Source of the DNA: a virus
Virus record (IMG/VR): IMGVR_UViG_3300029787_004704
Span: 43,869-107,868 of that record
DNA: 64,000 bases
Reading direction: 5' to 3' (one strand)
Part shown: positions 1-58,651 of the stretch, piece by piece
How positions within the stretch are numbered: the stretch's first letter is position 1
Layout: every line of letters starts with the position of its first letter
Notes under the pieces: generated by a model
Seen by the model: only the letters and a program-made list of their open reading frames with translations
Database searches by the model: none
What the model was told of the DNA's origin: nothing
Made by a program: the position numbers and the translations under genes

Positions 1-305
1 CATTCTAAACAAGCAGATGACGATGCGTAAATTACTCTGATGTTGTGTTCATCACACTGCTCAAACACTTTCCTACATTTAACCACATTTTCGTTCCAAT
101 ACAAATTAGGATTTTTAAAACTTTCTCGTATGTCTGCTTTGGCAGCTAGATGTATGCAAAGATCTGATTTAGGATCAATGTCAAAGTTGGCAATGTCTTT
201 GTTGATTAACAAATCCCAACAGTCTACTGTATGTCCATTTGCTTCTAAATGATTACGCAGATGTGTGCCAATAAAACCATGTGATCCTGTAAGTGTGATG
301 TGCAT
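1..305 (-). CDS. NAD-dependent epimerase/dehydratase (partial, runs off window start)
   Basis: Manual translation from ATG 305: MHITLTGSHGFIGTHL (GxxGxxG Rossmann motif)...HLAAKA...IYASSS; not in the ORF track because it is truncated. Confidence 0.85.
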   Translation of the reverse strand, partial: MHITLTGSHGFIGTHLRNHLEANGHTVDCWDLLINKDIANFDIDPKSDLCIHLAAKADIRESFKNPNLYWNENVVKCRKVFEQCDEHNIRVIYASSSACLE

Positions 306-309
306 ACGT

Positions 310-942
310 CTATATATAGAAGTTTCTGTTGGACGTTAATGATTCTTGATTGTTCACTTTGACTGCTCTTGGAGTCACCACTTGTATGTTACAGTATAGA
401 TCTTTCACAAACATGTCAGCGGCAGTCAGACCTTCTTCATATGCTCCACGTATTAACCGTTCAGCAGTTTTTGGTTTGATTACGTATCCATAGGTGCCTT
501 GTAATTGTTGTTGTCCTTTGCGATAATGTTCTAGTTTTTGTATGCTAGGTTCTTGTCCTAGATCAGGATCAGGCTCGACAAATCGGTGTTTGTCCAAATG
601 TAGTAGTTCATCAAACGGTGTTTTGTATGAGTCTGATACCACAATAGAATCGTGTTCAAGTATGACCACTGTTTCATCTAGTTCAACACATTTTTTCCAC
701 ATTTCCAAATGTGAAATCATGCATCCTCTGACACCACCTTTATTCCATTTTATTTTGTATAACTTTGGCCCGGGAAAATATGGTTGTAAATTTTCTCGTT
801 TGATATATTCATCTGCACGTGAAGGTGTGTACCCTTCAAACATCTCAGCGTCTAGGCCATGTGCTTTAGCACTGACCATTGCGTCAATAGCTGGTTGATG
901 TGTGCTTTCAACTTCTCTTAAAAATAATACAAACGCTTTCAT
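310..942 (-). CDS. Glycosyltransferase family 25-like protein
   Basis: GCMISHLEMWKKC...VILEHD and GTYGYVI motifs typical of GT25. Confidence 0.8.
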   Translation of the reverse strand: MKAFVLFLREVESTHQPAIDAMVSAKAHGLDAEMFEGYTPSRADEYIKRENLQPYFPGPKLYKIKWNKGGVRGCMISHLEMWKKCVELDETVVILEHDSIVVSDSYKTPFDELLHLDKHRFVEPDPDLGQEPSIQKLEHYRKGQQQLQGTYGYVIKPKTAERLIRGAYEEGLTAADMFVKDLYCNIQVVTPRAVKVNNQESLTSNRNFYI

Positions 943-1352
943 TTTTTGATAACGGACCCATGTACTCTTACTCTTATGTGGCCGTTGTAGTAATCATCTG
1001 ATTCAAGTACACCTCTAGCAAACTGTTCTTTTGCTTCAAGATAATTGCATTCGCCTTTAGATTTGCATAGATGAATTATTTCTCTTTTGAATTTTTCTTT
1101 GCCTAGTTTGTTTACATCTTCGATCAGCAAGTCACTCGAACCATAATAATCTTGCCAGTCACTTTCTACTGTGTGTCTGCGTTTATTTTTTCTGCCTTTG
1201 AGAGGTGGTCTTGACCTTTTGAATTTTGCCAATTTCTTCCCCACGTACATTCTACCTGTTGTGGTGTTGGTTATGAGATATACAAATCCCACTACACCGT
1301 CTGGTAATGTTTCTACTAGTTCTCCTTGATATGTCCAATTGACTTTTGTCAT
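939..1352 (-). CDS. GIY-YIG family (Seg-like) nuclease
   Basis: GFVYLITN...MYVGKK, YYGSS and a conserved YN near the C-terminus. Confidence 0.8.
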   Translation of the reverse strand: MTKVNWTYQGELVETLPDGVVGFVYLITNTTTGRMYVGKKLAKFKRSRPPLKGRKNKRRHTVESDWQDYYGSSDLLIEDVNKLGKEKFKREIIHLCKSKGECNYLEAKEQFARGVLESDDYYNGHIRVRVHGSVIKK

Positions 1353-1374
1353 GCTTTATTTTATTATATACTAT

Positions 1375-2086: not shown

Positions 2087-2175
2087 TTTATCTCCTTTTT
2101 GCTATTGCATACTATTTGCAATACGTTATTCATAAGAAAAGGAAACACAAGGTTTCCTTCTTACTGCTACTTATA

Positions 2176-4514: not shown

Positions 4515-5362
4515 AAAAAATTGGAGTTATCCATTGATATAGGAGCGTCAAACGACGCTGGAGCACCTTTTTCTATTTGTTCCTTTGTTGGTGTAATAGT
4601 AATAGGTTTAATTCTGCCTAAATCTTTTTGTACATCTAATCTTTTTTTAATTTTGTCGGCAGTGGCACCATCCATGTTGTCCACAAATTCTTCAATGTAA
4701 ACACGATCAGTGATAGTTTGTCCATCAGCTGTGACCTCCAAAATAGATTCTTTCATGTTAGCCAAAGTTAAGTTGGTCATATGGCCAAATATTTCAGCAA
4801 ATTTTTCCTGTTTTTGTGATGCATTTAATTCATTGGTATCAATGACTTGTGTTATAATTCTTTGTTGTTCAAAGGTGCGTAATTGTAAGTTTGTGAGTTG
4901 ACGATAACTCATTGGCTTTATTTTGAAAGACACTTTGTCTGCAGGCACATATCCATCAAATGGTGTCTTGTCAATTTTATCTCCTGCTGTACGCAAATCA
5001 ACATTGTAGACTACTTTGTCTTCTGTGTTGGGAATAGTCACATTGATATCCATCATGTGGCCATAAGTTGCAATACGTATAGCAATCATTATGGAGTCTA
5101 AATCTAACACCGGCATCATCCATGGATCTTTGATTCCTGGCACACATGAACGTATGACATTTATTGTTGATTCTCCGTTTAACAGTGCGTCTGGTGTATT
5201 CATGGTCATTTCATCTTTAGCAGTCATAGGATATACTGCAAGTTCTTTTTCGTTGTCAAATACTAAAGCTCCTTCAGGATACCAATCACCATTAGATGGC
5301 AGAGTTGTGTATATTGCTGGTTGCCTAAAGAACTTTGCTAAAGGGTTTTGTGAAGTTGTCAT
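4499..5362 (-). CDS. T4 gp26-like baseplate hub / tape-measure chaperone
   Basis: LPSNG...VYPMTAKDE...DLDSIMIAIRIATYG motifs; ends in NFF. Confidence 0.75.
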   Translation of the reverse strand: MTTSQNPLAKFFRQPAIYTTLPSNGDWYPEGALVFDNEKELAVYPMTAKDEMTMNTPDALLNGESTINVIRSCVPGIKDPWMMPVLDLDSIMIAIRIATYGHMMDINVTIPNTEDKVVYNVDLRTAGDKIDKTPFDGYVPADKVSFKIKPMSYRQLTNLQLRTFEQQRIITQVIDTNELNASQKQEKFAEIFGHMTNLTLANMKESILEVTADGQTITDRVYIEEFVDNMDGATADKIKKRLDVQKDLGRIKPITITPTKEQIEKGAPASFDAPISMDNSNFFVSRS

Positions 5363-5412: not shown

Positions 5413-7422
5413 ATGGCTAGTTTTAAAGAGGTTGATATAGAAGGTGTTCAGGTAAAGGTTCCTCAAGATGGTTTTGCATCTGAAGAAACTCTACAAGAAT
5501 TGGTAAAAGCACTGGGTGGGCGTAGTGCCGCCAGTGGTGGTACCGGTGGAGCCAAAGCACTGGCCGGAGCCACAAAAGGAGCAGGCAAAGACGTAAAAGC
5601 ATTTGGTAAATCTTTGTTCAAAATGAATCCTGCCCTTAATGCCTTGGAAACAGGATTTAATCTGTTGGGATCTGCTATCACAGGGGCAACTGGTTTAGTA
5701 AAGTCAATGGCAACAGCCGATGGTTCGTTTCAATCTCTAGGTGCTGTGGTAGATTTTTCAACTGCCCAAATCACAAAATTTACTAATATGATTCCTATAT
5801 TTGGAGGATTTTTTACAGCCGTGGCAGAATCTTCGGCCGAGATGGTGAAACTTAAATTGGCATTTATGGATCTCCAAAGAGACACATTCCAGGGTCTGTC
5901 TGAAGCAGGTTTTAGATTGAATGGAAATTTAGGTGATACCTTAACCACAGTTTTAGCGGCGAATATCAGTTTGGATCAGTTTGGAAATATAGTTGGTGAA
6001 AACACTGATGGTTTGAGAATATTTGGTGGTACAATTAATAATGCCGCAGACCAATTTGCAAACAGATTAGGAAGGCTAACTGATCAAGGATCAGATGTGG
6101 GTATGGGATTGCGTCTGCTAGGATTAAATTCAACAGCTATTGCTGAAGAATTTGCCGACTTTGTTACAACAAACAGATTGAATGCATCTTTAATGACTGG
6201 CAATGAACGGCAGTTGAATGATCAGTTGCTTAAACGTACTAAGAATGAAAGAATAATAACTGAATTGTCTGGCAAGAGCATCAAAGAACAACGTGCGGCA
6301 CAAATGGCAGCTGTGGCTGATTCTGCCTTCCAGGCCGCTTTGGTAGGCATGGGAGAACAGGGAGCAGAATTGACCACATTTGTGGCAGGATTGCCAGGAC
6401 CAATAGGTGATGCTGTGAAACAGATTATTGCATTCGGCACAGTGACTGATGAACAGTCAGCAAGACTGATAGCAACTATACCAGGGTTAAGAGAAACTCT
6501 TGAAAATAATATTGAAGGCATCAAAAGCGGAAATATAAGTTCAAGCAAAGCAGTGGCAGACACAATCCAATTGGGGCAGAATGCAATTGAAGACGGCAAC
6601 GGTTTGTTCTTGGCAAAAATATCCATGATTGATCCTGCCTTTGCCGCAGTTGCTGATTTTATCATGCAAGGAAGAGCGTCGGCAATACAACTTGAAAATA
6701 TCAACGATGTGTTAGGTACTTCGTTCACTGAGCTTGGTCAGGCACAAGAAGAGTTTAATGCACAACATGATGAACAACTTAAGATAGCAGAGGATCTAGC
6801 CAAACAGGGCAAATTGAACGAAGAAAATCTTAGAGCGGCAGGCATGGATGATAAAACGATCGGTATATTGTTAAATGCTGTAAAAGTAGAAGATGCTGTG
6901 GGGACGTTCCAAGCAGGATTATTCCAAACAACAAATAATCTTGGTCTGTTGGATGACGGAATTACTGGATTGATTGATACTTTAAACAAGATGCTTAGAA
7001 TGATTGATCCTAATTACGTAAACCCTAACGAATTAGCCAGACGAACAAAGGAAGTGGCAGAAAAGGGCGGAGATCAATTATTTGATCCGCTACCAGGTAT
7101 GGTGTCACCTCTAGAAACAGATTTTAGAAAAGCAAGATTTGGAGGAGACATACAACAGCAAACAGAGGCATTGGTCGCTGAGGTAGGAATAAAGACAGTT
7201 GAGGCCGCAGTACAAGGCGGAAGTATGAACGCTGACGAGGTTAGGGAGTACAAGGATAATATGAAGGTCTTTGACCGTGAGTATGATGAGGATGGCAAGG
7301 TTATAACAAACGGATCTGGACCAAACATGCAAACAACTAATGACATATTGATTGATATCAATAAAAATATCAAAAAAAACAATACAGAAATCCACGGAGG
7401 CCTACTAAACACCAAGAATTAA
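5413..7422 (+). CDS. Tape-measure-like / baseplate hub protein
   Basis: 669 aa, Ala/Gly/Leu-rich and predicted helical; adjacent to gp26 and portal. Confidence 0.55.
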   Translation: MASFKEVDIEGVQVKVPQDGFASEETLQELVKALGGRSAASGGTGGAKALAGATKGAGKDVKAFGKSLFKMNPALNALETGFNLLGSAITGATGLVKSMATADGSFQSLGAVVDFSTAQITKFTNMIPIFGGFFTAVAESSAEMVKLKLAFMDLQRDTFQGLSEAGFRLNGNLGDTLTTVLAANISLDQFGNIVGENTDGLRIFGGTINNAADQFANRLGRLTDQGSDVGMGLRLLGLNSTAIAEEFADFVTTNRLNASLMTGNERQLNDQLLKRTKNERIITELSGKSIKEQRAAQMAAVADSAFQAALVGMGEQGAELTTFVAGLPGPIGDAVKQIIAFGTVTDEQSARLIATIPGLRETLENNIEGIKSGNISSSKAVADTIQLGQNAIEDGNGLFLAKISMIDPAFAAVADFIMQGRASAIQLENINDVLGTSFTELGQAQEEFNAQHDEQLKIAEDLAKQGKLNEENLRAAGMDDKTIGILLNAVKVEDAVGTFQAGLFQTTNNLGLLDDGITGLIDTLNKMLRMIDPNYVNPNELARRTKEVAEKGGDQLFDPLPGMVSPLETDFRKARFGGDIQQQTEALVAEVGIKTVEAAVQGGSMNADEVREYKDNMKVFDREYDEDGKVITNGSGPNMQTTNDILIDINKNIKKNNTEIHGGLLNTKN

Positions 7423-13007: not shown

Positions 13008-14183
13008 ATGACATCCCAATTGCTAGAACATAAATGGCAAGAAACTAAAGGCGCTTTAATGGAAGGCGTTGAAGGTTCTAAAGCCAAAAACTTGGATGTG
13101 GTCTTAGAGAATACACGCAAATACTTGTCAGAGCAGGCAACTTCTGGAGCTACTGGTTCCGGTAACGTTGCAACTCTAAACAGAGTAATTTTGCCTGTAA
13201 TTCGTAGGGTCATGCCAACAGTGATTGCTAACGAGCTAGTAGGTGTACAACCTATGACTGGCCCAGTTGGTCAAATTCACACATTGAGAGTTAGATATGC
13301 TGACGCAACTACCGGCGGTGCTACAAACATCGCAGCTGGTGACGAAGCATTATCACCTTTCAAAATTGCATCATCTTATTCAGGTAACGACAGTGACCCG
13401 GCTAAGGGTGCATCAACAGCTACTTTAGAAGGTACTGCAGGTAACAGATTAAACGTGCAGATCCTAAAACAAGTAGTAGAAGCTAAATCAAGAAAACTAT
13501 CTGCAAGATGGACTTTTGAAGCGGCTCAAGACGCACAAGCACAGCAAGGTGTTGATATTGAAGCAGAAATCATGGCGGCATTAGCTCAAGAGATTACTGC
13601 TGAGATCGACCAAGAAATAATCGGCTCTCTAAGAACATTAGCGGGTTCGGCAGCTGCGGCTTTTGATCAATCTGCTGTTTCAGGTACAGCAACATTCGTT
13701 GGTGACGAACATGCGGCTCTAGCTGTACTGATCAACCAACAAGCAAACTTAATTGCACAAAGAACAAGACGTGGTGCAGGTAACTATGCTGTTGTTTCAT
13801 CTGAAGCACTAACAATCTTACAATCTGCTACAACTTCAGCGTTTGCTAGATCTACAGAGGGTGTATTTGAAGCACCAACTAACACTAAGTTTGTTGGAAC
13901 TTTGAACAACTCAATGAGAGTCTACGTAGACGGTTATGCAGCTACAGGAACAGATGTATTAGTAGGATACAAAGGACCATCAGAAGCAGATGCTCCAGCG
14001 TTCTATTGCCCATACATACCGTTAATGAGCTCAGGCGTTGTACTGGATCCGTCTACATTCGAGCCGGTAGTAAGTTTCTTAACTAGATATGGATACACTG
14101 AGTTATCAAACACAGCATCATCTCTAGGTAATGCGGCTGACTATCTTGCTAGAATTAGCATCAGTAACGTATCATTCAAATAA
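13008..14183 (+). CDS. Major capsid protein (T4 gp23-like)
   Basis: RRVMPTVIANELVGVQPMTGP, AKSRKLSARWT, AFYCPYIPL and TRYG motifs. Confidence 0.97.
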   Translation: MTSQLLEHKWQETKGALMEGVEGSKAKNLDVVLENTRKYLSEQATSGATGSGNVATLNRVILPVIRRVMPTVIANELVGVQPMTGPVGQIHTLRVRYADATTGGATNIAAGDEALSPFKIASSYSGNDSDPAKGASTATLEGTAGNRLNVQILKQVVEAKSRKLSARWTFEAAQDAQAQQGVDIEAEIMAALAQEITAEIDQEIIGSLRTLAGSAAAAFDQSAVSGTATFVGDEHAALAVLINQQANLIAQRTRRGAGNYAVVSSEALTILQSATTSAFARSTEGVFEAPTNTKFVGTLNNSMRVYVDGYAATGTDVLVGYKGPSEADAPAFYCPYIPLMSSGVVLDPSTFEPVVSFLTRYGYTELSNTASSLGNAADYLARISISNVSFK

Positions 14184-16726: not shown

Positions 16727-19700
16727 ATGACCAAACAACGTATTCAAATAGGTGCTATTAACTCTGGATCCGGCGATACCTTAAGAGCCGCGATGATAAA
16801 AATCAATAACAACTTTGATGAGTTGTATGATTTACAGGGACAAGACTCTAGTGGTCAGGGCATTGATATAAATGGAAACACAATCACATCAAATTTTGAA
16901 GACACTGACATAACATTATCACCAAACGGCACAGGTGACATTGTAATGGATGGTGATCTTGTTGTTACTGTTATAAAATCAGATGATTCTACAGAAGTTA
17001 AAATAAGTGATTCATTGAACGTCACAGGCACAGTGACAGCAACAGCATTTGTTGGTGATGGATCAGGACTTACAGGAGTAAGTGGTAGTGGTGGTGGCGG
17101 CGGTGACTCTACAGAAGTTTACACAAATATTTTAAGATCAAATGACTCCACTGCTATCCAAGTTGCAGACAATTTAGTACCAACAGCAGATGACACTTTC
17201 AGTTTAGGTACAGCAGACAAAAAATGGTCAGCAGTGCATGTTTCCGGAGGCACTATATTCTTAGGAAACTTACAGATCAAAGATTCAGGATCAAATTCAT
17301 TACAAATTTTAAGGTCAGACGGGTCTACTACGGCGGCAGTTGAATCTACAAGCACAACATTGAATGTTGTAGGTGATGACTCCACTGACATGGAAATTGT
17401 AGTTGGCACAGATAGATTACATTTCCAAGGTGGCACAAACATTGAAACATCCACAGACAGTGGTGCACAACTTACAATATCTACAAGTAACACTCCAACA
17501 TTCAGTGGCACAGTCACAGCAGGTGGATTAACAATTGGATCAGCAGTAATTAATGAAGCAGAACTAGAAACTATTGATGGTGTCACAGCAGGCACTGTGG
17601 CAGCTTCCAAAGCAGTGATTGTTGATGCCAACAAAGACGCGGCATCATTTAGAAACATTACTGCCACTGGTGCAGTAACAGGTGGCTCTTTTGTAATTGG
17701 ATCTGCAGACATTAGTGAAGCAGATCTAGAAAAACTAGATGGAATAACAAATGGAACTGCCGCGGCAAATAAAGCAATAGTAGCTGATGGCAACATTGAT
17801 GTTACTGCAATTAGAAATCTTACACTAACAGGAAACATACAGGTTGGTGGCGACATGACTGTGAGTGGCACAACTACATCAGTCAACACAACAAATTTAG
17901 AAATATCAGATGCACTATTAGAACTAAACAAAAATAACTCAGGTGGTGCAGATACTGATGCTGGACTATTAATACAAAGAGGATCTGCAGGCAACAATGC
18001 CGCGTTTTATTGGAATGAAGGTGCTGACAAATTCAAAGCAGTATTAACCACATCGGCAGCCACAGCAAGTGCAGTCACTGACTCAAGCACAGCAACCATT
18101 GTTGCAAATCTTGAAGGAGCAGTAACAGGCAATGCCGACACAGCAACAGCTTTAGCCACAGCAAGGAATATTGGTGGTGTTAGTTTTGACGGTACTGGAA
18201 ATATAAATTTACCTGGTGTAAACACTGCCGGTGACCAAGACACAAGTGGAACTGCCGCAATAGCAACTAAGATTATAGTAACTGATAACGAAAGTACAAA
18301 TGAAAATAATGTAATTTTGTTTGCGTCTAGCGTAGGTGATTCGAGTACTGCAAGTGGAAGTGGCGTAGAATCTGATGGTAACATGACATACAATCCCAGC
18401 ACAGGCAAAATCACTGCTACTGGATTTATAGGTGCTGTAACTGGTGATGTTACAGGTGATGTTACAGGTAATGCCGACACAGCAACAGCTTTAGCCACAG
18501 CAAGAACAATAGGTGGTGTGTCATTTGATGGCACAGGAAATATTAACTTGCCAGGAGTTAACACTGCTGGTAACCAAAATACAAGTGGAACAGCCGCGAT
18601 AGCAACCCTTGTAACAGTAACTGACAACGAAAACACAAATGAAGAAAATGTTGTTACATTCGTTGCTGGTGCAGATGCAGATGGTGGCAATGTTGGCCTT
18701 GAGTCAGATGGAAACTTTACATATAATCCAAGCACAGGGGCAGTAACAGCAACAAAATTCAAAGGTGATGGATCAGAACTTACTGGAATAAGCGGTGGTG
18801 GTGGATCAAGCACATTGAACGTTGTTGGTGATGATTCAACTGACATGGAAATTACGCTTGGAACAGATAGATTATATTTCCAAGGTGGCACAAATATTTC
18901 AACGTCAACAGACAGTGGGGCACAACTAACAATTACTGTTGCTGATGCTCCAACATTTAGTGGTGCAGTCACTGCCGCTGGATTTACAATAGGCAGTGCC
19001 GCTATTAACGAATCGGAACTTGAAACAATTGATGGTGTCACAGCAGGTACTGTGGCCGCAAGTAAAGCTGTCGTAGTTGACTCGAACAAAGATGCAACAG
19101 GATTTAGAAACGTTACAGGCACAGGAGATGTCGAAGGTGCAAGTTTAACTGTTACAAGTGGCGTTGCCATTACAGCATCAAGTGGCGATGTTACTGTTGC
19201 GAATGCAACATCAAATAAAGATTTAATATTCACAGTAAATGATGGTGGCTCTGCTACTGAGGTAATGAGATTAGATGGTGATGTGTCAGCATTATTAGTG
19301 GCGTCTGGGAAAGAATTGAGATTTGCAGACTCCGGAGAAAAAATATCAGGTGACGGCACTGACTTAACCATTGCATCAGGAGCCAAAATAAACCTAACAG
19401 CAACATCGGATGTTGTTGTTCCAGCTAACGTAGGAATTACATTTGGCACTGGCGAAAAAATTGAAGGCGACAACACAGACTTAACTATTACTTCAGGTGC
19501 TAAAATTAATTTGGCAGCTACTTCAGATGTACATATTCCAAATGATGTTGGTATTGTGTTTGGTGGAGATTCAGAAAAAATTGAAGGAGATGGAACGGAC
19601 TTAGTCATATCTGCAAATAATTTAACAGTTGACGCGGCCGCTGATATAATTTTAGACGCAGGTGGCAATGACTTCCAATTCAAAGCAGGTGGCACTCACA

Positions 19701-22700: not shown

Positions 22701-25700
22701 AAATTGAAGGTGACAATACAGACTTAACTATCACGTCGGGTGCTGACATAACCTTGGCGGCAACAGCAGATGTTAACATACCAGTCAATGTTGGCCTACG
22801 TCTAGGTGATGGTGGTGAGAATATCGAAACAGATAACACAGATTTAACAATTACTTCAGGTGGAAAAATTAATTTAGCAACTGCTTCAGATGTACACTTA
22901 GCCAACGATAAAGGAATAGTGTTTGGTGATGCCGGTGAGAAAATTGAAGGTGATGGCACCGACTTAACTATATCGTCAAGTGCAAAATTAAATTTAACAG
23001 CATCATCAGATGTACACATTCCAAAAAACATAGGATTAGTTTTTGATGATAATGCTAGTGAAAAAATTGAATCAGATGATACAGATTTAACTATTGCATC
23101 AGGTGCCAAAATTAATTTAAATGCAACTTCAGATGTTCACATTCCAAATGATGTAGGAATAGTATTTGGCGGTGCTTCTGAAAAAATTGAAGGTGATGGA
23201 ACTGACTTAGTCATATCAGCTAACAACTTGACTGTTGATGCGGCAGCTGATATTATACTTGACGCTGGTGGCAATGACCTTCAATTTAAAGCAGGTGGCA
23301 CACATGTCTTGAGTATTACAAATTCATCCAGTGATGTTATCATTAAACCAATTGTAGATGCAAAAGATATTATATTCCAGCAAAGAGATGGAACAGAGGT
23401 TGCTCGTATTGAAGACAATGCAACATTTAATGTTGTCACAGGCAAGTTAGCAATCAATGGCACAGCAATTACATCAACTGCCGCTGAACTAAATGCACTA
23501 GATGGCATTACTGCTGTTGTTGGTGAACTTAATGCTCTGGATATAGGTAGTACCGCTGTTGGAACTGCTGTTGCATCTAAGGCAGTGATACTAGATTCAA
23601 ATAAAGATTATACTGGCATAAGAAACTTAACTACAACTGGTTCATTCATAATTGGTAATGCGGACATGAATGAAACTGATCTAGAAAAACTAGATGGTAT
23701 CACAAACGGAACTGTGGCAGCTAACAAAGCAGTTGTTGTTGATGGTGACAAAGACGCTGGTTCATTTAGAAATATTACAGCAACAGGTACAGTAACCACA
23801 GCAATACTGGATGTAAACTCAATTAAATCAACTGATTCATCTAACATACGTATTGATGAAGGCCTTGATGTAGTAGGTGGATTATTCCTTTCAGAAATAA
23901 ATTCAATAGATTCAAGTGCAATTGAAGTAAATGAAGTTACTAATTTCAATGCAAACGTAGTTGTCAAAGCAGATGTAACAACAACTGGTTCATTTATTAT
24001 TGGCTCAGCGTCAATGAATGAAACTGATTTAGAAAAATTAGATGGCATTACAAATGGTGCTGGTGCGGCAAACAAAGCATTGGTGTTAGATGGAAGTGCT
24101 GATGTGGCATCTGGCTTAAGAAACTTAACAGCAAGTGGCACTATTACAGGTGGCACAATCACATTAGATGGAGGATTTTCGGCAACAGAATCAAGTGGTG
24201 ATGTCACAGTTGCTAATGCAACATCAAACAAAGATTTAATATTCACTGTAAACGACGGTGGCTCTGCTACTGAAGTGTTTAGACTTGATGGTGATGTGTC
24301 AGCACTACTAGTTGCGTCTGGGAAAGAATTGAGATTTGCTGATTCAGGCGAAAAAATATCAGGTGATGGCACAGATTTAACTATTGCATCAGGAGCCAAA
24401 ATTAATTTAACTGCCACTTCAGATGTTGTTGTACCAGCAAACGTAGGAATAACATTTGGTACAGGTGAGAAGATTGAAGGTGATAACACTGATCTTACAA
24501 TAACATCAGGTGCAAAAATTAATTTAGCCGCAACATCAGATGTTCACATTCCAAATGATGTTGGTATTGTGTTTGGTGGTGATTCAGAAAAGATCGAAGG
24601 TGATGGCACTGACTTAGTCATATCAGCAAATAACCTCACAGTGGATGCCGCGGCTGACATTATACTTGATGCCGGTGGCAATGACTTCCAATTCAAAGCA
24701 GGCGGCACTCACATATTAAGTGTAGTAAACTCATCCAGTGATGTTATTATTAAACCAATTGTAGATGCAAAAGATATTATATTCCAACAGAGAGATGGAA
24801 CAGAAGTTGCTCGTGTAGAAGACAATGGTACGTTCAATGTTGTTACCAGCAAGTTAGCAATAAACGGTACAGCAATTACTTCAACGGCCGCTGAACTAAA
24901 TGCACTAGATGGCATTACTGCTGTTGTTGGCGAACTTAATGCACTAGACCTTGGCAGCACAGCAGTTGGAACTGCTATTGCATCCAAAGCTGTTATTTTA
25001 GATTCAAACAAAGATTATACTGGGTTAAGAAACGTCACACTATCAGGTGAACTTGATGCAGGAAGTTTAGATATATCAGGTGATGCTGACATAGACGGTA
25101 CTTTAGAAACAGACGCATTAACAATTGGCGGCACTGCTATCGCAGATGTAATTGCAGGAACCACAGTCAACCTTGCCACACTAGCGTCAACTGTCACTAT
25201 TACAGACAACGAATCAACCAATGAAAACAATGCTTTAGTCTTTACTGCCGGCGGCGATACAGATGGTGGTAACCTTGGATTAGAATCAGATGGTACATGT
25301 ACATACAATCCAAGCACAGGTAAAATAACTGCCACAGGATTTGTAGGTGACTTAACAGGAACGGCATCTGCCGCTCAATACTCTGACTTGGCAGAACGTT
25401 ATCATGCTGATGCTGTGATGGAAAAAGGTGACATTGTTGAGATAGGTGGCGAAAATGAAATTACTAAGTCTACACAAGCAGTAAGTCCAGATGTGTTTGG
25501 TGTAATATCTCATGAGGATCAAGCGGCATTTAAAATGAATGACGGACTTCCTGATGATACTCACCCACTAGTGGCACTAACTGGAAGAGCAGATGTAAAA
25601 GTGATAGGACCAATCAACAAAGGCGACAGACTTGTCACATCATCTACACCAGGCGTTGCACGTAAGGCATTGATGTCTGAATGCACAGCATTTACAGTAA

Positions 25701-28899: not shown

Positions 28900-29685
28900 A
28901 TGGCAGACACAGCATTATCCGAGGCAACTAATAATCAGATCAACGCGGCAAAGCAAGAAATCTATGATTATGTTAAGATACGTTTGGGTGATGGAATGGT
29001 CGAAGTTGAACTTGATCCTAAACACCTAGAAAATGCATTTGTTACTGCTGTTGACAAATTTAGACAGCGTTCATCCAATTCTGCAGAAGAATCATATGGT
29101 TTTTTAGAGTTACAGAAAGATCAAACAGAATACACAATGCCAGCTGAAGTGATTCACGTCAGTAGAATTTACAGAAGAACAGTAGGTGGAGCATCATCGT
29201 CAGAGGGTGGATCTACATTTGATCCTTTTGAGTTGGCATACACCAACATATATTTGTTGCAGACAGGACGTATAGGAGGACTAGCAACATATGATATGTT
29301 TGCAGGATACCAGGAATTGGTTGCAAGAATGTTTGGTGGATTTATCAATTTTAAATACGACCAACCTACAAGACGATTACAGATATTTAGGCGACAAAAG
29401 GCAGCTGAAACTGTATTAATTGAGCAATACAATCACAGACCAGATTTCATATTACTCACTGACATATATGCAAAGCCTTGGATCAGAGATTACACACTAG
29501 CTATTGCTAAATTTACACTGGGCGAGGCTCGTTCTAAGTTTACAACCATTGCAGGACCACAAGGTGGTGGACAACTTAATGGTGATGCACTCAAGGCAGA
29601 AGCACAAAATGAGATGCAGATACTTGATCAACAAATAGGAAACTATCAAGAAGGTGGCACCCCACTTTCATTCACAATAGGTTAA
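28900..29685 (+). CDS. Neck protein (gp13-like)
   Basis: RLGDGMVEVELD, WIRDYTLA..K..LGEARSKF...GG.LNG. Confidence 0.9.
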   Translation: MADTALSEATNNQINAAKQEIYDYVKIRLGDGMVEVELDPKHLENAFVTAVDKFRQRSSNSAEESYGFLELQKDQTEYTMPAEVIHVSRIYRRTVGGASSSEGGSTFDPFELAYTNIYLLQTGRIGGLATYDMFAGYQELVARMFGGFINFKYDQPTRRLQIFRRQKAAETVLIEQYNHRPDFILLTDIYAKPWIRDYTLAIAKFTLGEARSKFTTIAGPQGGGQLNGDALKAEAQNEMQILDQQIGNYQEGGTPLSFTIG

Positions 29686-30786: not shown

Positions 30787-33700
30787 ATGGCATTAACATC
30801 ACCAGGAGTAGAGGTATCCGTAGTAGACGAAAGTTTTTACGTCCCCGGTATACCAGGAGCAGTACCACTAGTTGTAGTTGCAACTGCTCAAGACAAAACA
30901 TCAGGTACAGGTAGCGGCACAGCATCTGGTACACTGAGCGGCAACGCAAACGAAATATTTTTAATATCGTCACAGAGAGAATTAACTCAAACGTTTGGCG
31001 ATCCAACATTTTACACAGACGCATCAGGAACACCTATACAAGGTTATGAACTGAATGAATATGGCCTCCAAGCGGCTTACTCCTTCCTTGGAATTGCCAA
31101 CAGAGCGTTTGTGATTAGAGCGAACATTGACACTTCAGAATTAACCGGATCAGCAGATGCACCTGGTGGCACACCTAATGATGGTTTTTATTGGTTAGAC
31201 CTAGCAAGTACAAACTGGGGAATCAAAGAGTGGAGTGAATCAACACAATCATTTACATCAAAAACACCAATCTTTATCACATCAACTGATGATGTGACTG
31301 GTTCACCTGCGGCACCTATTGCGGCAAAAGGATCAATTGGTGATTACGCGATTGTGGCAACAAATCCTTTCAATAGATTATTTTACAAAACAAGATCAAA
31401 CACTTGGGTAAGAGTTGGATCAGCTGATTCAGCTACAAAAGATGCATCATGGTCATCATCACATCCGATAGTGACAGGAACAGCAACGAATCCGACAATA
31501 ACAAATTCAGAATCAGTTACAATTAACGGAAGCACTGTTTCATCACTAGGTACAACTGTGGCAACATTTGCATCAGCAATTAACAGTGAAGGCATTGAAG
31601 GTGTACAAGCGGCAGCTGTCGATGGAAAACTAGAAATATATGCGATTCCAGTAGCGTCAGGCGGAGACTCATCATCTTTGGCAGTAGGTGCTGTTGAATT
31701 AGATGAAGCTTCAGGAACACCTTTTGCAGATGCCGGAATAGCAGTAGGCACAGCAAACAGATTGTTTCCACCAAAAGTTTTCATAGGAACACACACTGAA
31801 GACTTTGGTTTCAGATCTGGAGATACTAGATCAAGACCAAGTGGATCTGTTTGGATACAACAAACAGCACCAAACAGTGGAGCAACCATATCAGTTAAAA
31901 AATATTCAGAAACTAATGGACAATTTGAATCAGTAAATGCACCTGTGTTTAAAACACACGAACAGGCATTACAACAACTTGATAAAGCAGGTGGCGGTTC
32001 AAACCTTACAGTGAATGATGTAATGGTACAAGTTAACACTACTGAAGATGAATGGGGCGATTCAACTAGAGATTCAGGCGAATTGATAGATTATGTTTTA
32101 TTCAGAAGAGCAGTTGGAATTGGATCAAAAACAAATATTACCTCAAATAAAATTACAACAAAAGCATCTGCAATTACAGCCACTGGTACTGTACGTATGG
32201 CAGAGACTATGGTCAACAATGCTACACAAACAAACAGTCTTTCAAATTTATTAAATGAAAAAACTGTAAGTGTAAGTGGTACAGATGCTGATGATGTTGT
32301 AGCTGGAATACAAGCGGCAGGATTTAAACATGTGTCAGCATCATATGACGCGACTACAAAAAGAATCACTGTATCCCATGACAAAGGTGGAAACATTTAC
32401 TTTACAGATACTTCCAACAATCCAATGGGTGACTTAGGATTTAATTCTACATTTGCAAACACTTACGGTGACAACACAAGCCTAAGTGCAGAGAAAATTG
32501 CAAACTTGTACACAGCGCCAACAGGTGACAAAGATGACTATTCAACAATCACAAGTAGTGATGGATTTTCATTTGTGGCATCCAATTGGCAACCAGTACA
32601 AAACACACCAGACTCAGGCACTACTTACACAGCAATACAAAGTGTAAATGAGCCATCAAAAGATCCGGCTAACAATCAACTTTGGTACAATACAACTGTT
32701 GATGAAGTAGATATTTTGATACATGATGGATCAGCATGGACAGGATACCAAAACGTATCATCAGATGCTAGAGGATTCAATTTAGCAAATACAGATCCAA
32801 AAGGTCCACAGGTTGTTGCAACTGAACCAACTACACAGTCAGATGGTACAGCACTAGTAGACGGCGATCTTTGGTTGAATACATCAGATTTAGAAAATTA
32901 TCCAAAACTTTACAGATATGATTCATCACAAGATAATGGGCAAGAGTGGGTGTTAATTGACAACACAGACCAATCAGGACAGGACGGAATACTGTTTGCA
33001 GACTTTAGATTCCATACAGATCAATCTAAAGATGTAGTAACTGAAGAGTCTTTGATTACTGACTTGTTAACATCAACTTACACTGATATTGATGCACCAA
33101 CATCGGCTTTATATCCAAAAGGAATGTTAGGATTTAATCTAAGACGTTCTGGATACAATGTTGCTAGATTCAAAAAAGATTACTTCACAAGAACTAACTT
33201 TGCAAGTGTTGTAACATATCCAGATCTACCTACAGAAAAAGATGCATGGGTTTCTGAATCACCATTGAAAACAAATGGTGCACCAAACATGGGTAGGAAG
33301 GCACAGAGAGCAGTTGTTGTAGAAGCATTGAAATCAACAGTAGCATCTACCACAGCACTAAGAGAAGAACAAAGAGAATTTAACTTGTTGGCAGCTCCGG
33401 CGTATCCAGAGTTAATTCAAGATTTAGAAACTCTTAATGCAGACAGAAAAGACACAGCATTTGTTGTTGGAGATACTCCATTCAGATTAGAAGCAACTTC
33501 AACTGCGGTTACAAACTATGCAAACAACACAGCAGGTGCGGCAGACAACGGAGAAGATGGACTGTTAACTACAGATTCATTCACTGGCGTTTATTATCCT
33601 TCAGGATTTACAACTGCTAACAGCGGTGAATCAGTTGCTGTTCCGGCTTCACACATGATGCTGAGAACGATTGCATTTAATGACCAAGTAGCATTTCCAT

Positions 33701-40512: not shown

Positions 40513-42057
40513 ATGGACTTATCAGCAGTAGCATCAGATCTATTTGACGAGATTAAATCACGTTATACTAACCTCACACTGGGCGATGATACAGCACAAG
40601 TTACGACTGATCCGCAGTTAGCACGTTTTTTCAAGTTCAATTTTAATGATAATCCAATCAGTATAGCAGTAGATGAAACTGAATTGCGTTTGATCTACAA
40701 CAGAGACATAACTGATATGCTTGACGAAGAACAAGAATCAGATTGGTATAATTTTTGTAGAACCATGCGTGAATTTGCTGTGACACACAATTTAGGATTC
40801 AAGCCACAAGACATAGAAAAATTAGATCTCGAACAAGGCGATTTTGAATTCATGTCGCAAGTAAATACAGTTAAGGAAAGCAAAATGCACGGAACAAGTA
40901 AAACATCATACGATAAACTAGATAAAACTAAGATGATCGTACGTCATTCGAAAAAAGTTGACGAAGATGTACCTGGTGCACGTTCAAGAAACATATCAGC
41001 AATTTTTATTGAGAACGCCCAAGGGGAAAGATTCCGTTTTCCATACAATTATCTAGCAGGTGCTAGAGCAATGATGATGCATGTTGCCAAAGGTGGCAAT
41101 CCATACGATGAGATTGGTGAATCTATTGTAAGTAAAGTGGATGAAATTGCACAACTTAAGAAATTCTCTAACTATGCTGTAAGGCAAGGACTAGTAGATG
41201 AAACTACTTTACCATATGTTGAAGCGGCAACCGACAAAATTAAAGAAGCAAAGAAAACACTTCACAGGTTATCAAAAGAAACTGCATATGAACAAGCAGT
41301 CGAAAGTCTGAATGCACAGGAAAATGACTTACAAGAAGATGATATAAATGATTTAAAGAAAATGTTTACTAAAGAAACATTTGATGAAGACATTGTTGAT
41401 GCATTTAAATTTTTACCAGTTAACGAATTCAAAAAAGACGATGATGAAGAAGAAATAGACTTTAAAGCAATGACAGGCACAGCAATGAGAACAGCTCCAT
41501 ACGTGAACAAATGGCTTGCTAATCCAGAGAATGCATTGATCCTTAAAAAAGATGATTCATATGATAAACTTCAAAACAATCTAAGAAGTCAAATGAAAGA
41601 CACTGAGCAAAAACTTGCCGCTGTGATGCGTGATATTGCAACAAGATTTTTATCAGCTGATCCACAAGATGACGAAGTGGCAAACTTTGCTTCAGAAATG
41701 GAAACAAAACTTGCGGCAGCTGGAGAATTATTCAATAAACAAGATCCTAACATGAAAACACTGAAAGGTGTTGCTATGCAGTTGGCAAATAGATATCTAC
41801 AAGATATGAAAAAAATACAACAGGACGCAGAATACAAAGATGAAGTAAGAAAGTCGCCGGAAGATGTCAAAGCATTCAAAAATATCAAAGGTAAAGACAT
41901 AGAAAAAGGCAAACTTACAAAACAATACAAAAGAAAATACAAAGACGAATCATCACAGTTTGAAGCATGGTTAGACACAAAAGTTGCTGAAATGGAAATT
42001 GCTTTAGAGTCAGATGAAATTGTCAAATCAGAATATCAAGATCCCTACACAGTTTAA
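40513..42057 (+). CDS. Hypothetical phage protein
   Basis: 514-aa ORF, TAAGTA upstream. Confidence 0.8.
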   Translation: MDLSAVASDLFDEIKSRYTNLTLGDDTAQVTTDPQLARFFKFNFNDNPISIAVDETELRLIYNRDITDMLDEEQESDWYNFCRTMREFAVTHNLGFKPQDIEKLDLEQGDFEFMSQVNTVKESKMHGTSKTSYDKLDKTKMIVRHSKKVDEDVPGARSRNISAIFIENAQGERFRFPYNYLAGARAMMMHVAKGGNPYDEIGESIVSKVDEIAQLKKFSNYAVRQGLVDETTLPYVEAATDKIKEAKKTLHRLSKETAYEQAVESLNAQENDLQEDDINDLKKMFTKETFDEDIVDAFKFLPVNEFKKDDDEEEIDFKAMTGTAMRTAPYVNKWLANPENALILKKDDSYDKLQNNLRSQMKDTEQKLAAVMRDIATRFLSADPQDDEVANFASEMETKLAAAGELFNKQDPNMKTLKGVAMQLANRYLQDMKKIQQDAEYKDEVRKSPEDVKAFKNIKGKDIEKGKLTKQYKRKYKDESSQFEAWLDTKVAEMEIALESDEIVKSEYQDPYTV

Positions 42058-49498: not shown

Positions 49499-51211
49499 AT
49501 GTGTGGCATATACGGAATAACAGAACGTAATCCTGAATTCATAAATTCATACATCAAGCAGTGTTCACACAGAGGACCGGATGGTTACAGTATTTGGTAT
49601 GACGATGATATCAGTCTAGGACATAACTTATTAGCAATTACATCTGATCCTGCACAAGGAAAACAACCTGTGGAAACAAGACATGGAGTATTAACCTACA
49701 ATGGAGAGATATTCAATTATGCAGATCTAATAAAAGAAATAGAATGGAGTCCACAGACAACTTGTGACACAGAATATCTTTCACATGCATTAGGCACAAT
49801 GCCACATGAAGTAGTCAATGACAAAATTGATTCAATGCACGCCTACGCATATTACAATAAAGCAAAGAAGCATTTGATCCTAAGTAGAGATCATGCAGGA
49901 ATAAAACCTTTGTATTATGCTGAGATCCCACAAGGGTTAGTATTCGGTTCAGAGATAAAAGGTATGATTAACAAAGTGCCAAATGGACGATGCATAGACG
50001 ACTTTGCCGCGGCCGCAATGAGTTATTCTGGTATTAATCCAACTAGGAATACATTGTTTAAAAACATTAAAAAAGTTATGCCTGGCGAAACATTAGTGTA
50101 TGATGTTGCTAACAAAAGATTTATTCATTCTTATCAAAAAGTTATTACACCTACTTCCAAGGGCAAATTAGATTTAGAAGAGTTCAGGCATGAAGCACAT
50201 GAAACTGTAAAAATGAGTACATTGGGTCTGAGAAAATTTGGTGTGTTTTTGTCAGGTGGTTTAGATTCTACACTGGTTGCATACGAGTTAAAAAAGATTC
50301 TAGGTGACCTTGATTCGTTTACAAACAAGATGGAACCAAATGTTCGTATAGGAGAGGACTTTAATGATGACGCAAATTGTGCCAAACGTTTTGCTGAAGA
50401 TTACAATCTGAATCATCATAGTATTGTTGTTACACCAGAAACAGTAAAACAAAGTTGGAATGCAAGTATGCACACCATGGAGCAACCTGTGTATAATATT
50501 AGTATTCCTATGTATTATCAAACAAACAAATATCTTAGTGAACGTGGTGTTGTTGTAACAATGGCAGGAGATATGGGCGATGAATTGCTAGGAGGATATG
50601 CCAAGTATTGGAAACTGCGAAATGACCCGCCCAAAGACTTTAAGGATATGATTTGGAAATGGATGCACAGAATCAAACGTCCGGTACAATTAACCAGCAA
50701 GATAAATCCTAGAGACATACACTCAGAACTGTGTAAAGTTATTCCCGAAGATATCTGGAATCCCCAAGATCCAATTAATTCATATATGGCTGTTGATTGT
50801 ATCACGCAAGTGCCTGAAGAATTTTTCTCACGCAATGATAAATTTGGAATGCAGTTTTCTATGGAAGGCAGATTTCCTTTGGCAACAAAAAGATTTATGA
50901 AATACTGTATGAATATGCATTCACAGTACAAAATAGGCAAAAATAAAACAGATACAAAGTTGCCTACCAAACTTGCATACAAAGGTTACATGCCAGATTA
51001 CATCATAGACAAAATGAAAACAGGATGGACGGTGCCATTGATTTATTGGTTGGGAAATATGCCAGAACTAAATGACTGGGCAATGAGTTATATGCTCAAA
51101 GAAGACTGTTTGAAAAAACAAATATCCATGAAAAACTGGGACAACAAAAAGACCAGAGTAGTAAGTTGGATGATGCGTTCATGGGCACAAATTTACGATA
51201 TACAGTCATAA
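49499..51211 (+). CDS. Asparagine synthase-like glutamine amidotransferase (AsnB family)
   Basis: N-terminal MCGI, HRGPD, NGEIFN, RDHAGIKPLYY, LSGGLDS, GDELLGGY. Confidence 0.93.
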   Translation: MCGIYGITERNPEFINSYIKQCSHRGPDGYSIWYDDDISLGHNLLAITSDPAQGKQPVETRHGVLTYNGEIFNYADLIKEIEWSPQTTCDTEYLSHALGTMPHEVVNDKIDSMHAYAYYNKAKKHLILSRDHAGIKPLYYAEIPQGLVFGSEIKGMINKVPNGRCIDDFAAAAMSYSGINPTRNTLFKNIKKVMPGETLVYDVANKRFIHSYQKVITPTSKGKLDLEEFRHEAHETVKMSTLGLRKFGVFLSGGLDSTLVAYELKKILGDLDSFTNKMEPNVRIGEDFNDDANCAKRFAEDYNLNHHSIVVTPETVKQSWNASMHTMEQPVYNISIPMYYQTNKYLSERGVVVTMAGDMGDELLGGYAKYWKLRNDPPKDFKDMIWKWMHRIKRPVQLTSKINPRDIHSELCKVIPEDIWNPQDPINSYMAVDCITQVPEEFFSRNDKFGMQFSMEGRFPLATKRFMKYCMNMHSQYKIGKNKTDTKLPTKLAYKGYMPDYIIDKMKTGWTVPLIYWLGNMPELNDWAMSYMLKEDCLKKQISMKNWDNKKTRVVSWMMRSWAQIYDIQS

Positions 51212-55823: not shown

Positions 55824-56502
55824 AGCACAAAAAGGTGATTATGCGGAAACAGTATTAATGCCAGGTGACCCTTTAAGGGCCAAATGGATTGCACAAACTT
55901 TTTTAACGGATGTAAGGCAAGTTAACAGTGTAAGAAATTGTTTAGGTTACACAGGAGTCTATAAAGGAAGGAACATATCAGTTCAAGGTGGTGGAATGGG
56001 CATGCCTAGCAATGCAATTTACATTACTGAATTGTTTAAATTTTACGATGTGCAAACAATCATAAGAGTAGGCAGTTGTGGAGCCATACAAAAGAATATC
56101 AAAATAGGTGACATAGTTGCGGCCACTACTGCTTCTACTGACAGTGCAATGGGTAAAGAACTTATTCCTGGATTTACATATGCACCCAGTTGTAACTTTG
56201 ATCTACTTAAAAATTTTGTTGATAAGTGTCCAGATGCTCACGTTGGTGGCATTACTTCGAACGATTATTTTTATCAACCTGACAAGAAATGGTGGAAACA
56301 GTGTCAAAAATATAATGTGTTAGCAGTAGAAATGGAAACTTATATCTTGTATGCCTTAGCCGCAGAATACAACAGAAAAGCTCTCAGTGTGAATACAGTG
56401 TCAGATCATTTAGATCCTAACTGGTTAGATATAAAAAACTTATCACCTAAACAAAGAGAGACAGGGTTTGACCGTATGATTAAGTGTGTTCTAGAATTAT
56501 GA
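55807..56502 (+). CDS. deoD: Purine nucleoside phosphorylase
   Basis: MTPHI...LMPGDPLRAK, GMGMPS, IRVGSCG, VEME, VSDH. Confidence 0.95.
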   Translation: MTPHIEAQKGDYAETVLMPGDPLRAKWIAQTFLTDVRQVNSVRNCLGYTGVYKGRNISVQGGGMGMPSNAIYITELFKFYDVQTIIRVGSCGAIQKNIKIGDIVAATTASTDSAMGKELIPGFTYAPSCNFDLLKNFVDKCPDAHVGGITSNDYFYQPDKKWWKQCQKYNVLAVEMETYILYALAAEYNRKALSVNTVSDHLDPNWLDIKNLSPKQRETGFDRMIKCVLEL

Positions 56503-57194
56503 TATGTGTTGCTATTCCATCACGTGGCAGGCCGGCCTTTCTTAAAAGAGTAATAGATACAGCATCACAAACGGCAGATAATTGGGAAGAAGTAATTGTA
56601 AAATATTATCTCAATGATGATGATCCTGATCTTAAAAAATACAAAAAAATTTTACAAGGCCTACAAACAACACACGGTCCGTCGGTGCAGTGGGAAATAG
56701 GACCTGATCAAAACACGGTACAAAGTTGGAATATGTTGTGTGAAAATACAGAAGCAGATTATTACATGTTGGCTGGAGATGAAATACAGTTTGTTACAGA
56801 AGGGTGGGATACAAAAGTTAAACAAACCAAACAAGATTATCCTGACGGAATATTTTGTATGGCAGTGTATGACGGAAGACCAAACAGGGCAGAACTGCTC
56901 AGGTGCACACAACCGATTGTGACCAAAGAATGGCGTGAAGCACTTGGTTATTTTTGGGCGCCTTTCCTATGGCATTGGCACGTGGATCAATACACTGGAG
57001 ACCTTGCAAAAGCAGTGGATCGTTTTGTGTTTCGTGAAGATATCTTTATCAAGATAAGAAAAATGAAAGACAGGACTGCCAAACGCAATCGTGGCAGAGG
57101 TGTGTTCGATAGAGACGAGTGGGTGTATGAAAAACATAAGGAACTATACTTTGACATCGACACCAAAAAGTTGTTGGACAAAATGTCAAAATAG
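56499..57194 (+). CDS. Glycosyltransferase family 2-like
   Basis: VAIPSRGRP, DDD, GDE. Confidence 0.7.
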   Translation: MICVAIPSRGRPAFLKRVIDTASQTADNWEEVIVKYYLNDDDPDLKKYKKILQGLQTTHGPSVQWEIGPDQNTVQSWNMLCENTEADYYMLAGDEIQFVTEGWDTKVKQTKQDYPDGIFCMAVYDGRPNRAELLRCTQPIVTKEWREALGYFWAPFLWHWHVDQYTGDLAKAVDRFVFREDIFIKIRKMKDRTAKRNRGRGVFDRDEWVYEKHKELYFDIDTKKLLDKMSK

Positions 57195-57208
57195 TATATA
57201 ATTTGCAT

Positions 57209-58651
57209 ATGGATATCACAAATTTATTCCCACTGTTTCCTGCCAGTACTGGGATCAACATTTTATTGGTATATGGGTTGTTTGCGTTCGCGATGACTTA
57301 TTATTTTTCGCGGGGTTACAATGACAACAAAACTTCTTTTCTAGTTGCAAGACGTGAACTTGGTACTTTCCAAGGCTCACTCAGTGTTGCGGCAGCTTGG
57401 TTATGGGCACCTGGACTGTTCATATCTGCTCAACAGGCATATGTCAACGGATTGGTAGGACTGTTTTGGTTTTGTTTGGGCAACTTCCTTACTCTAGGAG
57501 CATTTGCTTATTTTGCCAAACGCATTAGAAACAATGAACCAGAAGGATTTACTTTTTCAGGTTATCTAAAAGATCGTTTCTCGGGCAGAGTGCAAAGTCT
57601 GTTTGTGGTAGAAATGATGATATTAGCCACATGTGCATTTGCAATCAATTTGTTGGCAGGATCAAAAACTGTAGAAGTTTTAACAGGAGTCGATTACACA
57701 CTGGCAACATTTTTGATGGTAGGTGTTGCGATACTTTATTCATTCAGGACAGGCTTAAAAGCAACTGTGGTCACAGAAATAATCAAAATTATAGTTGTAT
57801 GGATTGGGGTACTAATTTTAGTGCCATGGGCAATCTCTAGTGCAGGTGGCTGGGACATAGTTGCCGCAGGTATTGGTGGCAAAACAGGATTAGGTGGATC
57901 AATATTCGGAACGTCATTTGCATGGGGCATATTCACTGGATTTGGTGCGGCCGCTTTCTTAGGACACTTGGGTGGACCATGGGGAGACAATTCATTTTAT
58001 CAAAGAGCATTTTCTATCAAGATAGGTTCAATCATACCAGCATATGTAATTGCTTCTTTTGTGTTCATTGTAATTCCAATCTGTATGGGACTGTTAGGCT
58101 TTTTGGCCGCTGGCTCAGGATTAGATATTCCAGGGAACATGGTGGGTACAACCAATGCAATCGTGATAGGAACTTTTCTGCCACCGATAGCATCAATCAT
58201 ATTTGCGTTCATGATATTTGCTGGTTTGGTTGCAATACTTGATTCACAGTTTGCATCTGTTGCCAACATGACAGGGCATGACATATACAACCAATTTAAA
58301 ACAGGTAGTCCTATCAGTTCTGCACGATATGGCATGATTGCTTTAGCATTAGCGGGTCTTATAGTGGCGAATATTCCGGGTATGCAGTTAGTGTATCTGT
58401 TTTTATTCTTTGCTGTTTTACGTGCATCTGTGTGGTTGCCATCGATGATTGCTGTGCTAAGACCACAATGGATCACAGAACAAGGAATGTTTTGGGGTAT
58501 ATTAATACCAGCATCTATAGGTGAAGTCTTATTTGTTGCAGGAAAACTTGGTTATACAGACACTGCTTTCACAGGAACATTGATTGCTATCTTTGGCTCT
58601 CCTGTGTTAACATTGTTAATAAGCAAGTATGGAAAAGGAAAATCCAAGTAA
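57209..58651 (+). CDS. Sodium:solute symporter (DUR3-like)
   Basis: About 13 hydrophobic segments; SVAAAWLWA...AY..G..GLFWF and DNSFYQRA. Confidence 0.85.
   Translation: MDITNLFPLFPASTGINILLVYGLFAFAMTYYFSRGYNDNKTSFLVARRELGTFQGSLSVAAAWLWAPGLFISAQQAYVNGLVGLFWFCLGNFLTLGAFAYFAKRIRNNEPEGFTFSGYLKDRFSGRVQSLFVVEMMILATCAFAINLLAGSKTVEVLTGVDYTLATFLMVGVAILYSFRTGLKATVVTEIIKIIVVWIGVLILVPWAISSAGGWDIVAAGIGGKTGLGGSIFGTSFAWGIFTGFGAAAFLGHLGGPWGDNSFYQRAFSIKIGSIIPAYVIASFVFIVIPICMGLLGFLAAGSGLDIPGNMVGTTNAIVIGTFLPPIASIIFAFMIFAGLVAILDSQFASVANMTGHDIYNQFKTGSPISSARYGMIALALAGLIVANIPGMQLVYLFLFFAVLRASVWLPSMIAVLRPQWITEQGMFWGILIPASIGEVLFVAGKLGYTDTAFTGTLIAIFGSPVLTLLISKYGKGKSK

Follow-up and report, generated by a model that had tools for sequence, protein, structure and literature searches.

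Why should a phage spell its genes in such a way that nearly every copy of the five-base word GCWGC is lost, and a handful of copies is kept beside particular flanking bases? The question is raised by a 64,000-nucleotide stretch of viral DNA (IMG/VR virus record IMGVR_UViG_3300029787_004704, positions 43,869 to 107,868; hereafter the window), which makes up the right-hand 64 kb of one contig of 107,868 bp. A first-pass annotation of the window had noticed that GCWGC is avoided except where it overlaps AGCT, and had suggested that the host restricts GCWGC and that cytosine methylation at AGCT shields the remaining sites. We counted the words exactly and compared each count with the mean of synonymous-codon (codon-preserving) shuffles, employing 150 shuffles for the window and 200 for the flank matrix of the contig; counts below are given as observed versus this mean. 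The word is purged, the purge depends on the bases outside the word, and the same dependence is found again in related phages at non-homologous positions. We think it probable that these patterns result from avoidance of restriction, with two blind spots that overlap; the role of nucleases as agents of the selection and the origin of either blind spot are inferred.

In the window GCWGC occurs 17 times versus 112.8 ± 5.7 in the shuffles, the lowest of which contained 100 copies. Sites overlapping AGCT (GCAGCT/AGCTGC) number 15 versus 32.5, and sites without this overlap number 2 versus 80.4, which is far from expectation and shows that the avoidance noticed by eye holds under exact counting. 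Across the whole contig the count is 19 versus 147.8 ± 7.5 (z = -17); no shuffle came close to it, and GCWGC is the most depleted 5-mer. On the plus strand of the window the word is present 16 times as GCAGC and once as GCTGC (at 13653, within GCAGCTGC). All 16 GCAGC positions listed by the first-pass annotation proved exact, and T is the next base in 14 of them, the exceptions being 18056 (GGCAGCC) and 24954 (GGCAGCA), as had been reported.

The word was removed by synonymous choice. Among the Ala-Ala pairs GCA-GCA is absent (0 versus 46.8), GCT-GCN is reduced to 2 versus 39 and GCA-GCT to 13 versus 21.3, and the replacement spellings GCG-GCA (46 versus 6.5) and GCC-GCA (28 versus 11.4) are raised. 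In agreement with the earlier remark on the spelling of Ala-Ala, GCC or GCG opens 142 of the 158 pairs, and these two codons make up only 21% of Ala codons. Between G-ending and C-starting codons Gln is written CAA 42 times and CAG twice, and Leu is never written CTG (0 of 60); after an NGC codon Ser is AGC in 1 of 61 cases and Cys is TGC in 0 of 7. Since synonymous recoding is present in all three frames, the selection acted on the DNA word, and the pattern is due neither to constraint on the proteins nor to faulty sequencing. Errors of sequencing or basecalling at methylated motifs were ruled out by this three-frame avoidance together with the observation of the same patterns in many independent metagenome contigs. 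Avoidance of the wider word GCNGC (Fnu4HI type) was ruled out as well: GCSGC is over-represented 2.6-fold because it is the replacement spelling for GCWGC. GCAGC is the site of BbvI. GCWGC is the recognition site of TseI and ApeKI (PMC3643589, PMC8557920), and is a known Type II recognition sequence under significant avoidance.

The bases around the surviving copies were examined in a flank matrix, in which each site of the whole contig was written X-GCAGC-Y. Sites with X other than G and Y other than T (HGCAGCV) are missing altogether, 0 versus 88. GGCAGCT stands at 12 versus 6.1 and GGCAGCC at 3 versus 3.3, and the remaining entries are CGCAGCT with 2 (4.4 expected), TGCAGCT with 1 (18.3), GGCAGCA with 1 (10.6), AGCAGCT with 0 (12.2) and GGCAGCG with 0 (3.2); GGCAGCR together comes to 1 versus 13.8, and AGCAGCT and TGCAGCT summed to 1 versus 30.5. 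Overlap with AGCT is found in 15 of the 19 survivors against an expected share of 28% (p = 6e-6), so the purge and the correlation on which the proposed shield was built both stood. A 5' G, found in 16 of the 19 against 16% expected (p = 1e-10), is a stronger predictor than a 3' T, and of the 15 GCAGCT sites it precedes 12, where a share of 15% is expected (p = 3e-8). The near absence of A- and T-preceded GCAGCT demonstrates that AGCT overlap is not sufficient in this contig, contrary to the shield as first proposed; in practice both flanks are needed. That most GCAGCT sites are GGCAGCT, and that A/T-preceded GCAGCT is itself purged, are points beyond what the first-pass annotation had noted. 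AGCTGC is tolerated and AGCAGC is not (0 versus 47.7), from which it follows that the T rule needs the exact tetranucleotide AGCT. The orientation of GCAGCT is biased 14:1 because the Ala-Ala pairs split 126:32 by strand, with the majority on plus-strand genes. A separate avoidance of CAGCA/CAGCAG as the cause of the missing GGCAGCA was ruled out, HCAGCA being present at 380 versus 244.

The surviving sites of the window, all given on the plus strand, are as follows. GGCAGCT is found at 142..146, within a minus-strand gene where it is read A-GCT-GCC, and at 6307..6311, where it is an in-frame Ala-Ala GCA-GCT after ATG. The gene of the gp23-like major capsid protein contains CGCAGCT at 13332..13336 (in-frame Ala-Ala), the contig's only A/T-flanked GCAGCT, which is TGCAGCT at 13938..13942, and at 13650..13657 the double site GCAGCTGC, in which GGCAGCT on the plus strand overlaps CGCAGCT on the minus strand; sister contigs have AGCTGCAGCTGCA at this place. 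Further copies of GGCAGCT lie at 17600..17604 in an open reading frame of 3015 aa, at 19514..19518, at 23243..23247, where Ala-Ala-Ala is spelled GCG-GCA-GCT, and at 23717..23721, 29401..29405, 41716..41720 and 57392..57396. Two more, at 31612..31616 and 33391..33395, are in the tail sheath gene; the latter is read TTG-GCA-GCT here and CTT-GCA-GCT (TGCAGCT) in four sister contigs. Conversely, at 39022 the window has TTT-GCC-GCT and three of the same four sister contigs have TTT-GCA-GCT. The two sites without AGCT overlap are GGCAGCC at 18056..18060, which has a G flank on both strands, and GGCAGCA at 24954..24958, the one site that is read in a different frame (GGC-AGC, Gly-Ser). All 12 copies of GGCAGCT are on the plus strand, none is in the left arm of the contig, which spans 43.8 kb, and those in coding sense are all in-frame Ala-Ala.

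Relatives were retrieved from IMG/VR by capsid protein (>590 contigs) and by terminase protein (>590 contigs); 149 non-redundant contigs were analysed, five of them fetched whole. Their treatment of GCWGC falls into four dialects. In 61 contigs (824 kb) there is no purge, 2221 versus 2236, and in nine (353 kb) the purge is strict, 1 versus 368; the strict 197-kb contig G005 has GCWGC at 0 versus 161, AGCT at 0 versus 327 and no GGCAGC. Twenty more distant contigs (390 kb, 175 versus 646) follow a G-flank rule: 172 of the 175 survivors have a 5' G on one strand, which makes HGCWGCD the word that is purged, and the rule is strand-symmetric, one G being enough. In the relative G003, all genes of which lie on one strand, GGCWGC and GCWGCC are both present in coding sense; therefore the G-flank rule acts on DNA and not on codons, and a purely codon-level cause of the G flank was ruled out for the relatives. 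The distant relatives keep AGCT, yet HGCAGCT is at 1 versus ~128 in them. Finally, 20 sister contigs (171 kb, 95 versus 255), which belong to the phage's own clade and are at least 81% identical in the terminase or at least 93% in the capsid, follow a T rule: 76 of the 95 survivors are GCAGCT, all others are G-flanked, and HGCAGCR is at 0 versus ~130. Approximately 40 of the 149 related contigs show a flank-conditional purge.

The sister contigs differ in whether they purge AGCT, and the flanks of GCAGCT differ with it. Sisters that keep AGCT have GCAGCT after any base (18 with G/C before it, 35 with A/T), whereas in those that purge AGCT it is found 20 times after G/C and three times after A/T (Fisher p = 3.6e-5 without this genome). 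Pooled, the AGCT-purging sisters contain GGCAGCT at 15 versus 5.0 and A/T-flanked GCAGCT at 3 versus 20, the same pattern as in this genome. When this genome (4 sites) was compared with the contig L105 (7 sites; terminase 92% identical), no site was shared. The survivor pattern thus recurs in sister contigs at non-homologous positions, and the sites were not inherited.

Similar behaviour was observed for other words of the contig. AGCT is purged threefold, 96 versus 294 ± 15 (ratio 0.33), so that it is not reliably protected. Its best-tolerated context is GGC-AGCT, with 12 versus 5.9 in the contig and 15 versus 3.2 in sister contigs. A general effect of GG steps on AGCT survival was not seen; only GGC-AGCT, plus ATC-AGCT in the contig alone, stand out, and GGT-AGCT is at 0 versus 4.6. 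ATC-AGCT is present without depletion in the contig (19 versus 19.7), which was not reproduced in sister contigs; its window sites are at 4724, 15738, 17782, 20800, 23215, 23245, 27310, 31419, 35547, 36057 and 41652, among others, and three of the sites are ATCAGCTGAT palindromes. GCGC is purged eightfold, 10 versus 86. All 10 survivors are GGCGC/GCGCC (in the window at 13051, 21432, 22509, 32515, 34220, 51658, 56958 and 62364, with two more in the left arm), and HGCGCD is at 0 versus 38.6. GCGC survivors are GGCGC in 62 of 62 sites of the sister contigs and 80 of 81 sites of the strict set, compared with 57% in unpurged relatives. The strict relatives tolerate GGCGC but not GGCWGC, which shows that the G-flank effect goes with the individual system and does not act as a shield everywhere. 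AGCCC/GGGCT is purged ninefold, 5 versus 47 (in the window GGGCT at 11481 and 22389 and AGCCC at 51415), and is at 0 versus 34 in G005; we know of no restriction enzyme with the word AGCCC. GATC is not avoided in the contig (484 versus 386).

The restriction avoidance that we think probable could have produced these patterns in the following way. GCWGC would be the target of sequence-specific nucleases (TseI/ApeKI/BbvI type), with GCGC, AGCT and AGCCC targeted separately, the phage would remove these words synonymously, and the GCWGC copies remaining would be those that the selecting nucleases cut poorly. The first blind spot would be a 5' G on either strand (GGCWGC), common to the wider family and, in this genome, applying also to GCGC. 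The second, confined to the phage's own clade, would be a T as the next base (GCAGCT = AGCTGC). One favourable flank is too little in this genome and the AGCT-purging sisters, where only the two-flank sites GGCAGCT and GGCAGCC survive. Since Ala is preferably written GCA or GCT, Ala-Ala after a G-ending codon would then be channelled into GCA-GCT, the only spelling with preferred codons that is still allowed. The variation among relatives and the synonymous recoding fit restriction avoidance. As to the T rule, we tentatively favour two or more different host enzymes with flank requirements of their own over overlapping AGCT methylation, which we consider the less likely cause; an asymmetric enzyme reading GCAGC and 'not T', together with an HGCWGCD-type enzyme, would predict the same counts as a shield. 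AGCT methylation as the cause of the second blind spot is plausible, but would not be sufficient.

Several points weigh against this explanation. GGCAGCT escapes the AGCT purge, with 12 copies versus the ~2 that a depletion equal to that of other AGCT would leave (p = 1e-6), and flank specificity of the enzymes would account for this escape only through the proposed codon-optimality funnel. The G rule is not strand-symmetric in the contig, where HGCAGCC is at 0 versus 17, yet that class is tolerated in distant relatives. The counts in each flank class are small, and the sister contigs partly reflect common ancestry, with some homologous sites in common. To our knowledge there is also no characterised enzyme with the specificity HGCWGCD or GCAGCV.

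A rival explanation is a refined form of the AGCT shield, in which cytosine methylation of the overlapping AGCT keeps a palindromic GCWGC enzyme from cutting GCAGCT; the methylase, of host or phage, would make either 5-methylcytosine (m5C; AluI type) or N4-methylcytosine (m4C). If such methylation were incomplete and flank-dependent here, only the best-methylated sites, GGCAGCT, would be safe from the cutters of both AGCT and GCWGC. The requirement for the exact tetranucleotide argues for this shield, as do the clade-wide tolerance of GCAGCT, the contrast between AGCT-keeping sisters, which tolerate GCAGCT anywhere, and AGCT-purging ones, which do not, and the good tolerance of the context GGC-AGCT here and in sisters. 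In GCAGCT the target C of an AluI-type enzyme is the second C of GCWGC, and its coincidence with the C methylated by M.ApeKI is a further point in favour of the shield. Protection by M.ApeKI results from methylation of the second C in GCWGC (PMC8557920), and m4C at AGCT and at GCWGC both occur in uncultured aquatic microbes (PMC6329791; PMC8919816). However, a word that is itself purged threefold is not reliably protected, A/T-preceded GCAGCT is nearly eliminated despite its AGCT, GGCAGCC survives without AGCT, and the distant relatives keep AGCT and purge HGCAGCT. The enzyme that a phage-borne shield calls for was not detected either: a six-frame search of the 107.9-kb contig (~26% of the genome) revealed no C5 (PF00145) or N4/N6 (PF01555) cytosine methyltransferase, and no C5 methyltransferase (PF00145) was found in five large relatives, one of them a 374-kb genome that is 100% complete. 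The only methyltransferase seen in the contig is a Dam-like N6-adenine enzyme (PF02086, E = 5e-32), encoded outside the window on the minus strand at contig positions 17101-17838 (locus L001), and this enzyme with the unavoided GATC is the pattern expected of a phage-encoded shield. The literature yielded nothing direct on flank-dependent avoidance or on cross-protection of GCWGC enzymes by M.AluI. Taking these points together we regard the refined shield as doubtful, and we are equally sceptical of the interaction of two restriction-modification systems that it would amount to, in which flank-preferring AGCT cytosine methylation would hit the ApeKI-type protective cytosine and make GGCAGCT immune to both cutters.

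Other explanations were given still less weight. A modification on the phage side at GG/CC steps, shielding sites whose outer G follows G and leaving the AGCT correlation secondary, would unite the G-flank rule seen for three words, namely GCWGC in the relatives, GCGC here and in the relatives, and GATC in the Pelagibacter phage HTVC008M (NC_020484; L184-L186), where GATC is at 83 versus 405 and all 83 copies are GGATC; it would also agree with 16 of the 19 survivors being GGCAGC. We find it improbable, as the strict relatives tolerate GGCGC and not GGCWGC (G005 lacks GGCAGC over 197 kb), GGCAGCA and GGCAGCG are depleted here, and neither a cytosine methylase nor a gene of the DpdA/TGT family (7-deazaguanine insertion) was found in the contig; the latter family was likewise missing from four relatives. 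An avoidance of a nuclease carried by the phage itself or by competing phages, and not of host restriction, could explain relatives with no AGCT and no GCWGC such as G005, but an unrestricted cutter of both words is incompatible with the 96 AGCT and 19 GCWGC kept here, which makes it very improbable. Least credible of all is that GGCAGCT is a positively selected functional motif (a protein-binding or recombination signal) and not a leftover. Its excess over the shuffles, its confinement to the plus strand and its excess in sister contigs at different positions point in that direction, but the enrichment is weak (p = 0.02), the coding-sense copies are all in-frame Ala-Ala, the strand bias follows the split of the Ala-Ala pairs, the left arm has no copies and no extended context is conserved.

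The contig has a GC content of 37.8% and a CheckV completeness of 26%; its relatives reach 374 kb. Among its genes are those of a T4-type portal, a gp23-type major capsid protein and a large terminase, and its tail sheath of 1147 aa shows ~45% identity to the tail sheaths of the jumbo phages PA5oct and Atu_ph07. No nucleotide match to the contig was found among deposited phages. A 570-aa AsnB-like (asparagine-synthase-like) amidotransferase is encoded at 49499-51211 (+) of the window. This protein is 89% identical to the product of a gene on a 12-kb contig of the marine 'MAG: bacterium TMED46' (MAG, metagenome-assembled genome), probably phage DNA binned with the bacterium, and another match, at 48%, is in a Pelagibacteraceae MAG; a search for the host by way of this gene gave only these two, the likely viral marine MAG contig and the Pelagibacteraceae match. 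We read the source as an uncultured marine jumbo T4-like myovirus.

Some further word counts were recorded. GATC and CATG are both mildly over-represented in the contig (~1.25-fold), and CATG is purged by some relatives. TAAATA/TATTTA is strongly depleted in the contig (48 versus 132) and in all fetched relatives. The core of the T4 late promoter is TATAAATA, and the depletion may represent avoidance of spurious late promoters inside genes. In HTVC008M TCGA is at 2 versus 121, TCAAGA, AGTACT and TCTAGA are absent, and YGCAGCR is absent though GCWGC overall is at 149 versus 147.

The purge described here is of a known kind, textbook restriction-site avoidance. Its resemblance to that seen in virulent double-stranded DNA phages (survey of Rusinov et al. 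2018, PMC6286503) lies in the under-representation of the Type II words GCWGC, GCGC and AGCT, in the synonymous recoding and in the variation among close relatives. It differs in that the purge depends on outside bases, the 7-mer class GGCAGCY being fully spared and the other 14 almost empty, and in that related phages show at least four flank dialects. These dialects among close relatives, together with the clade-specific AGCT-overlap rule and the finding that this sub-lineage requires both flanks, are new. Some Type II enzymes are blocked where CpG or dcm methylation overlaps their sites. The present case is like such cross-protection in that the survivors overlap a second methylatable word, AGCT, with its target C at the M.ApeKI position (PMC8557920), but here AGCT is purged too, and overlap with it does not suffice for survival. 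The 16 to 1 orientation of GCAGC in the window also recalls evasion of Type III enzymes by strand bias. The EcoP15I sites of T7 all lie in one orientation; unlike in that case, the word here is purged on both strands and not retained. An orientation bias of the Type III sort was ruled out, since orientation follows the strand split of the Ala-Ala pairs and both orientations are present in G003.

The leftover sites are not noise, for they obey sharp flank rules that are reproducible in independent contigs. If enzyme specificity lies behind the rules, the k-mer dialects of phages would show the true, longer recognition requirements (HGCWGCD, HGCGCD) of enzymes in uncultured marine hosts, and could help to group phages by common host defences. 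If they reflect overlapping methylation, they would provide a readout, obtained from the genome text only, of cross-protection between two modification systems, and were the two-system reading true the flank pattern of the survivors would be the footprint of a methylase's flank preference in uncultured hosts. Either way, surveys that count the core word alone underestimate selection and miss its structure.

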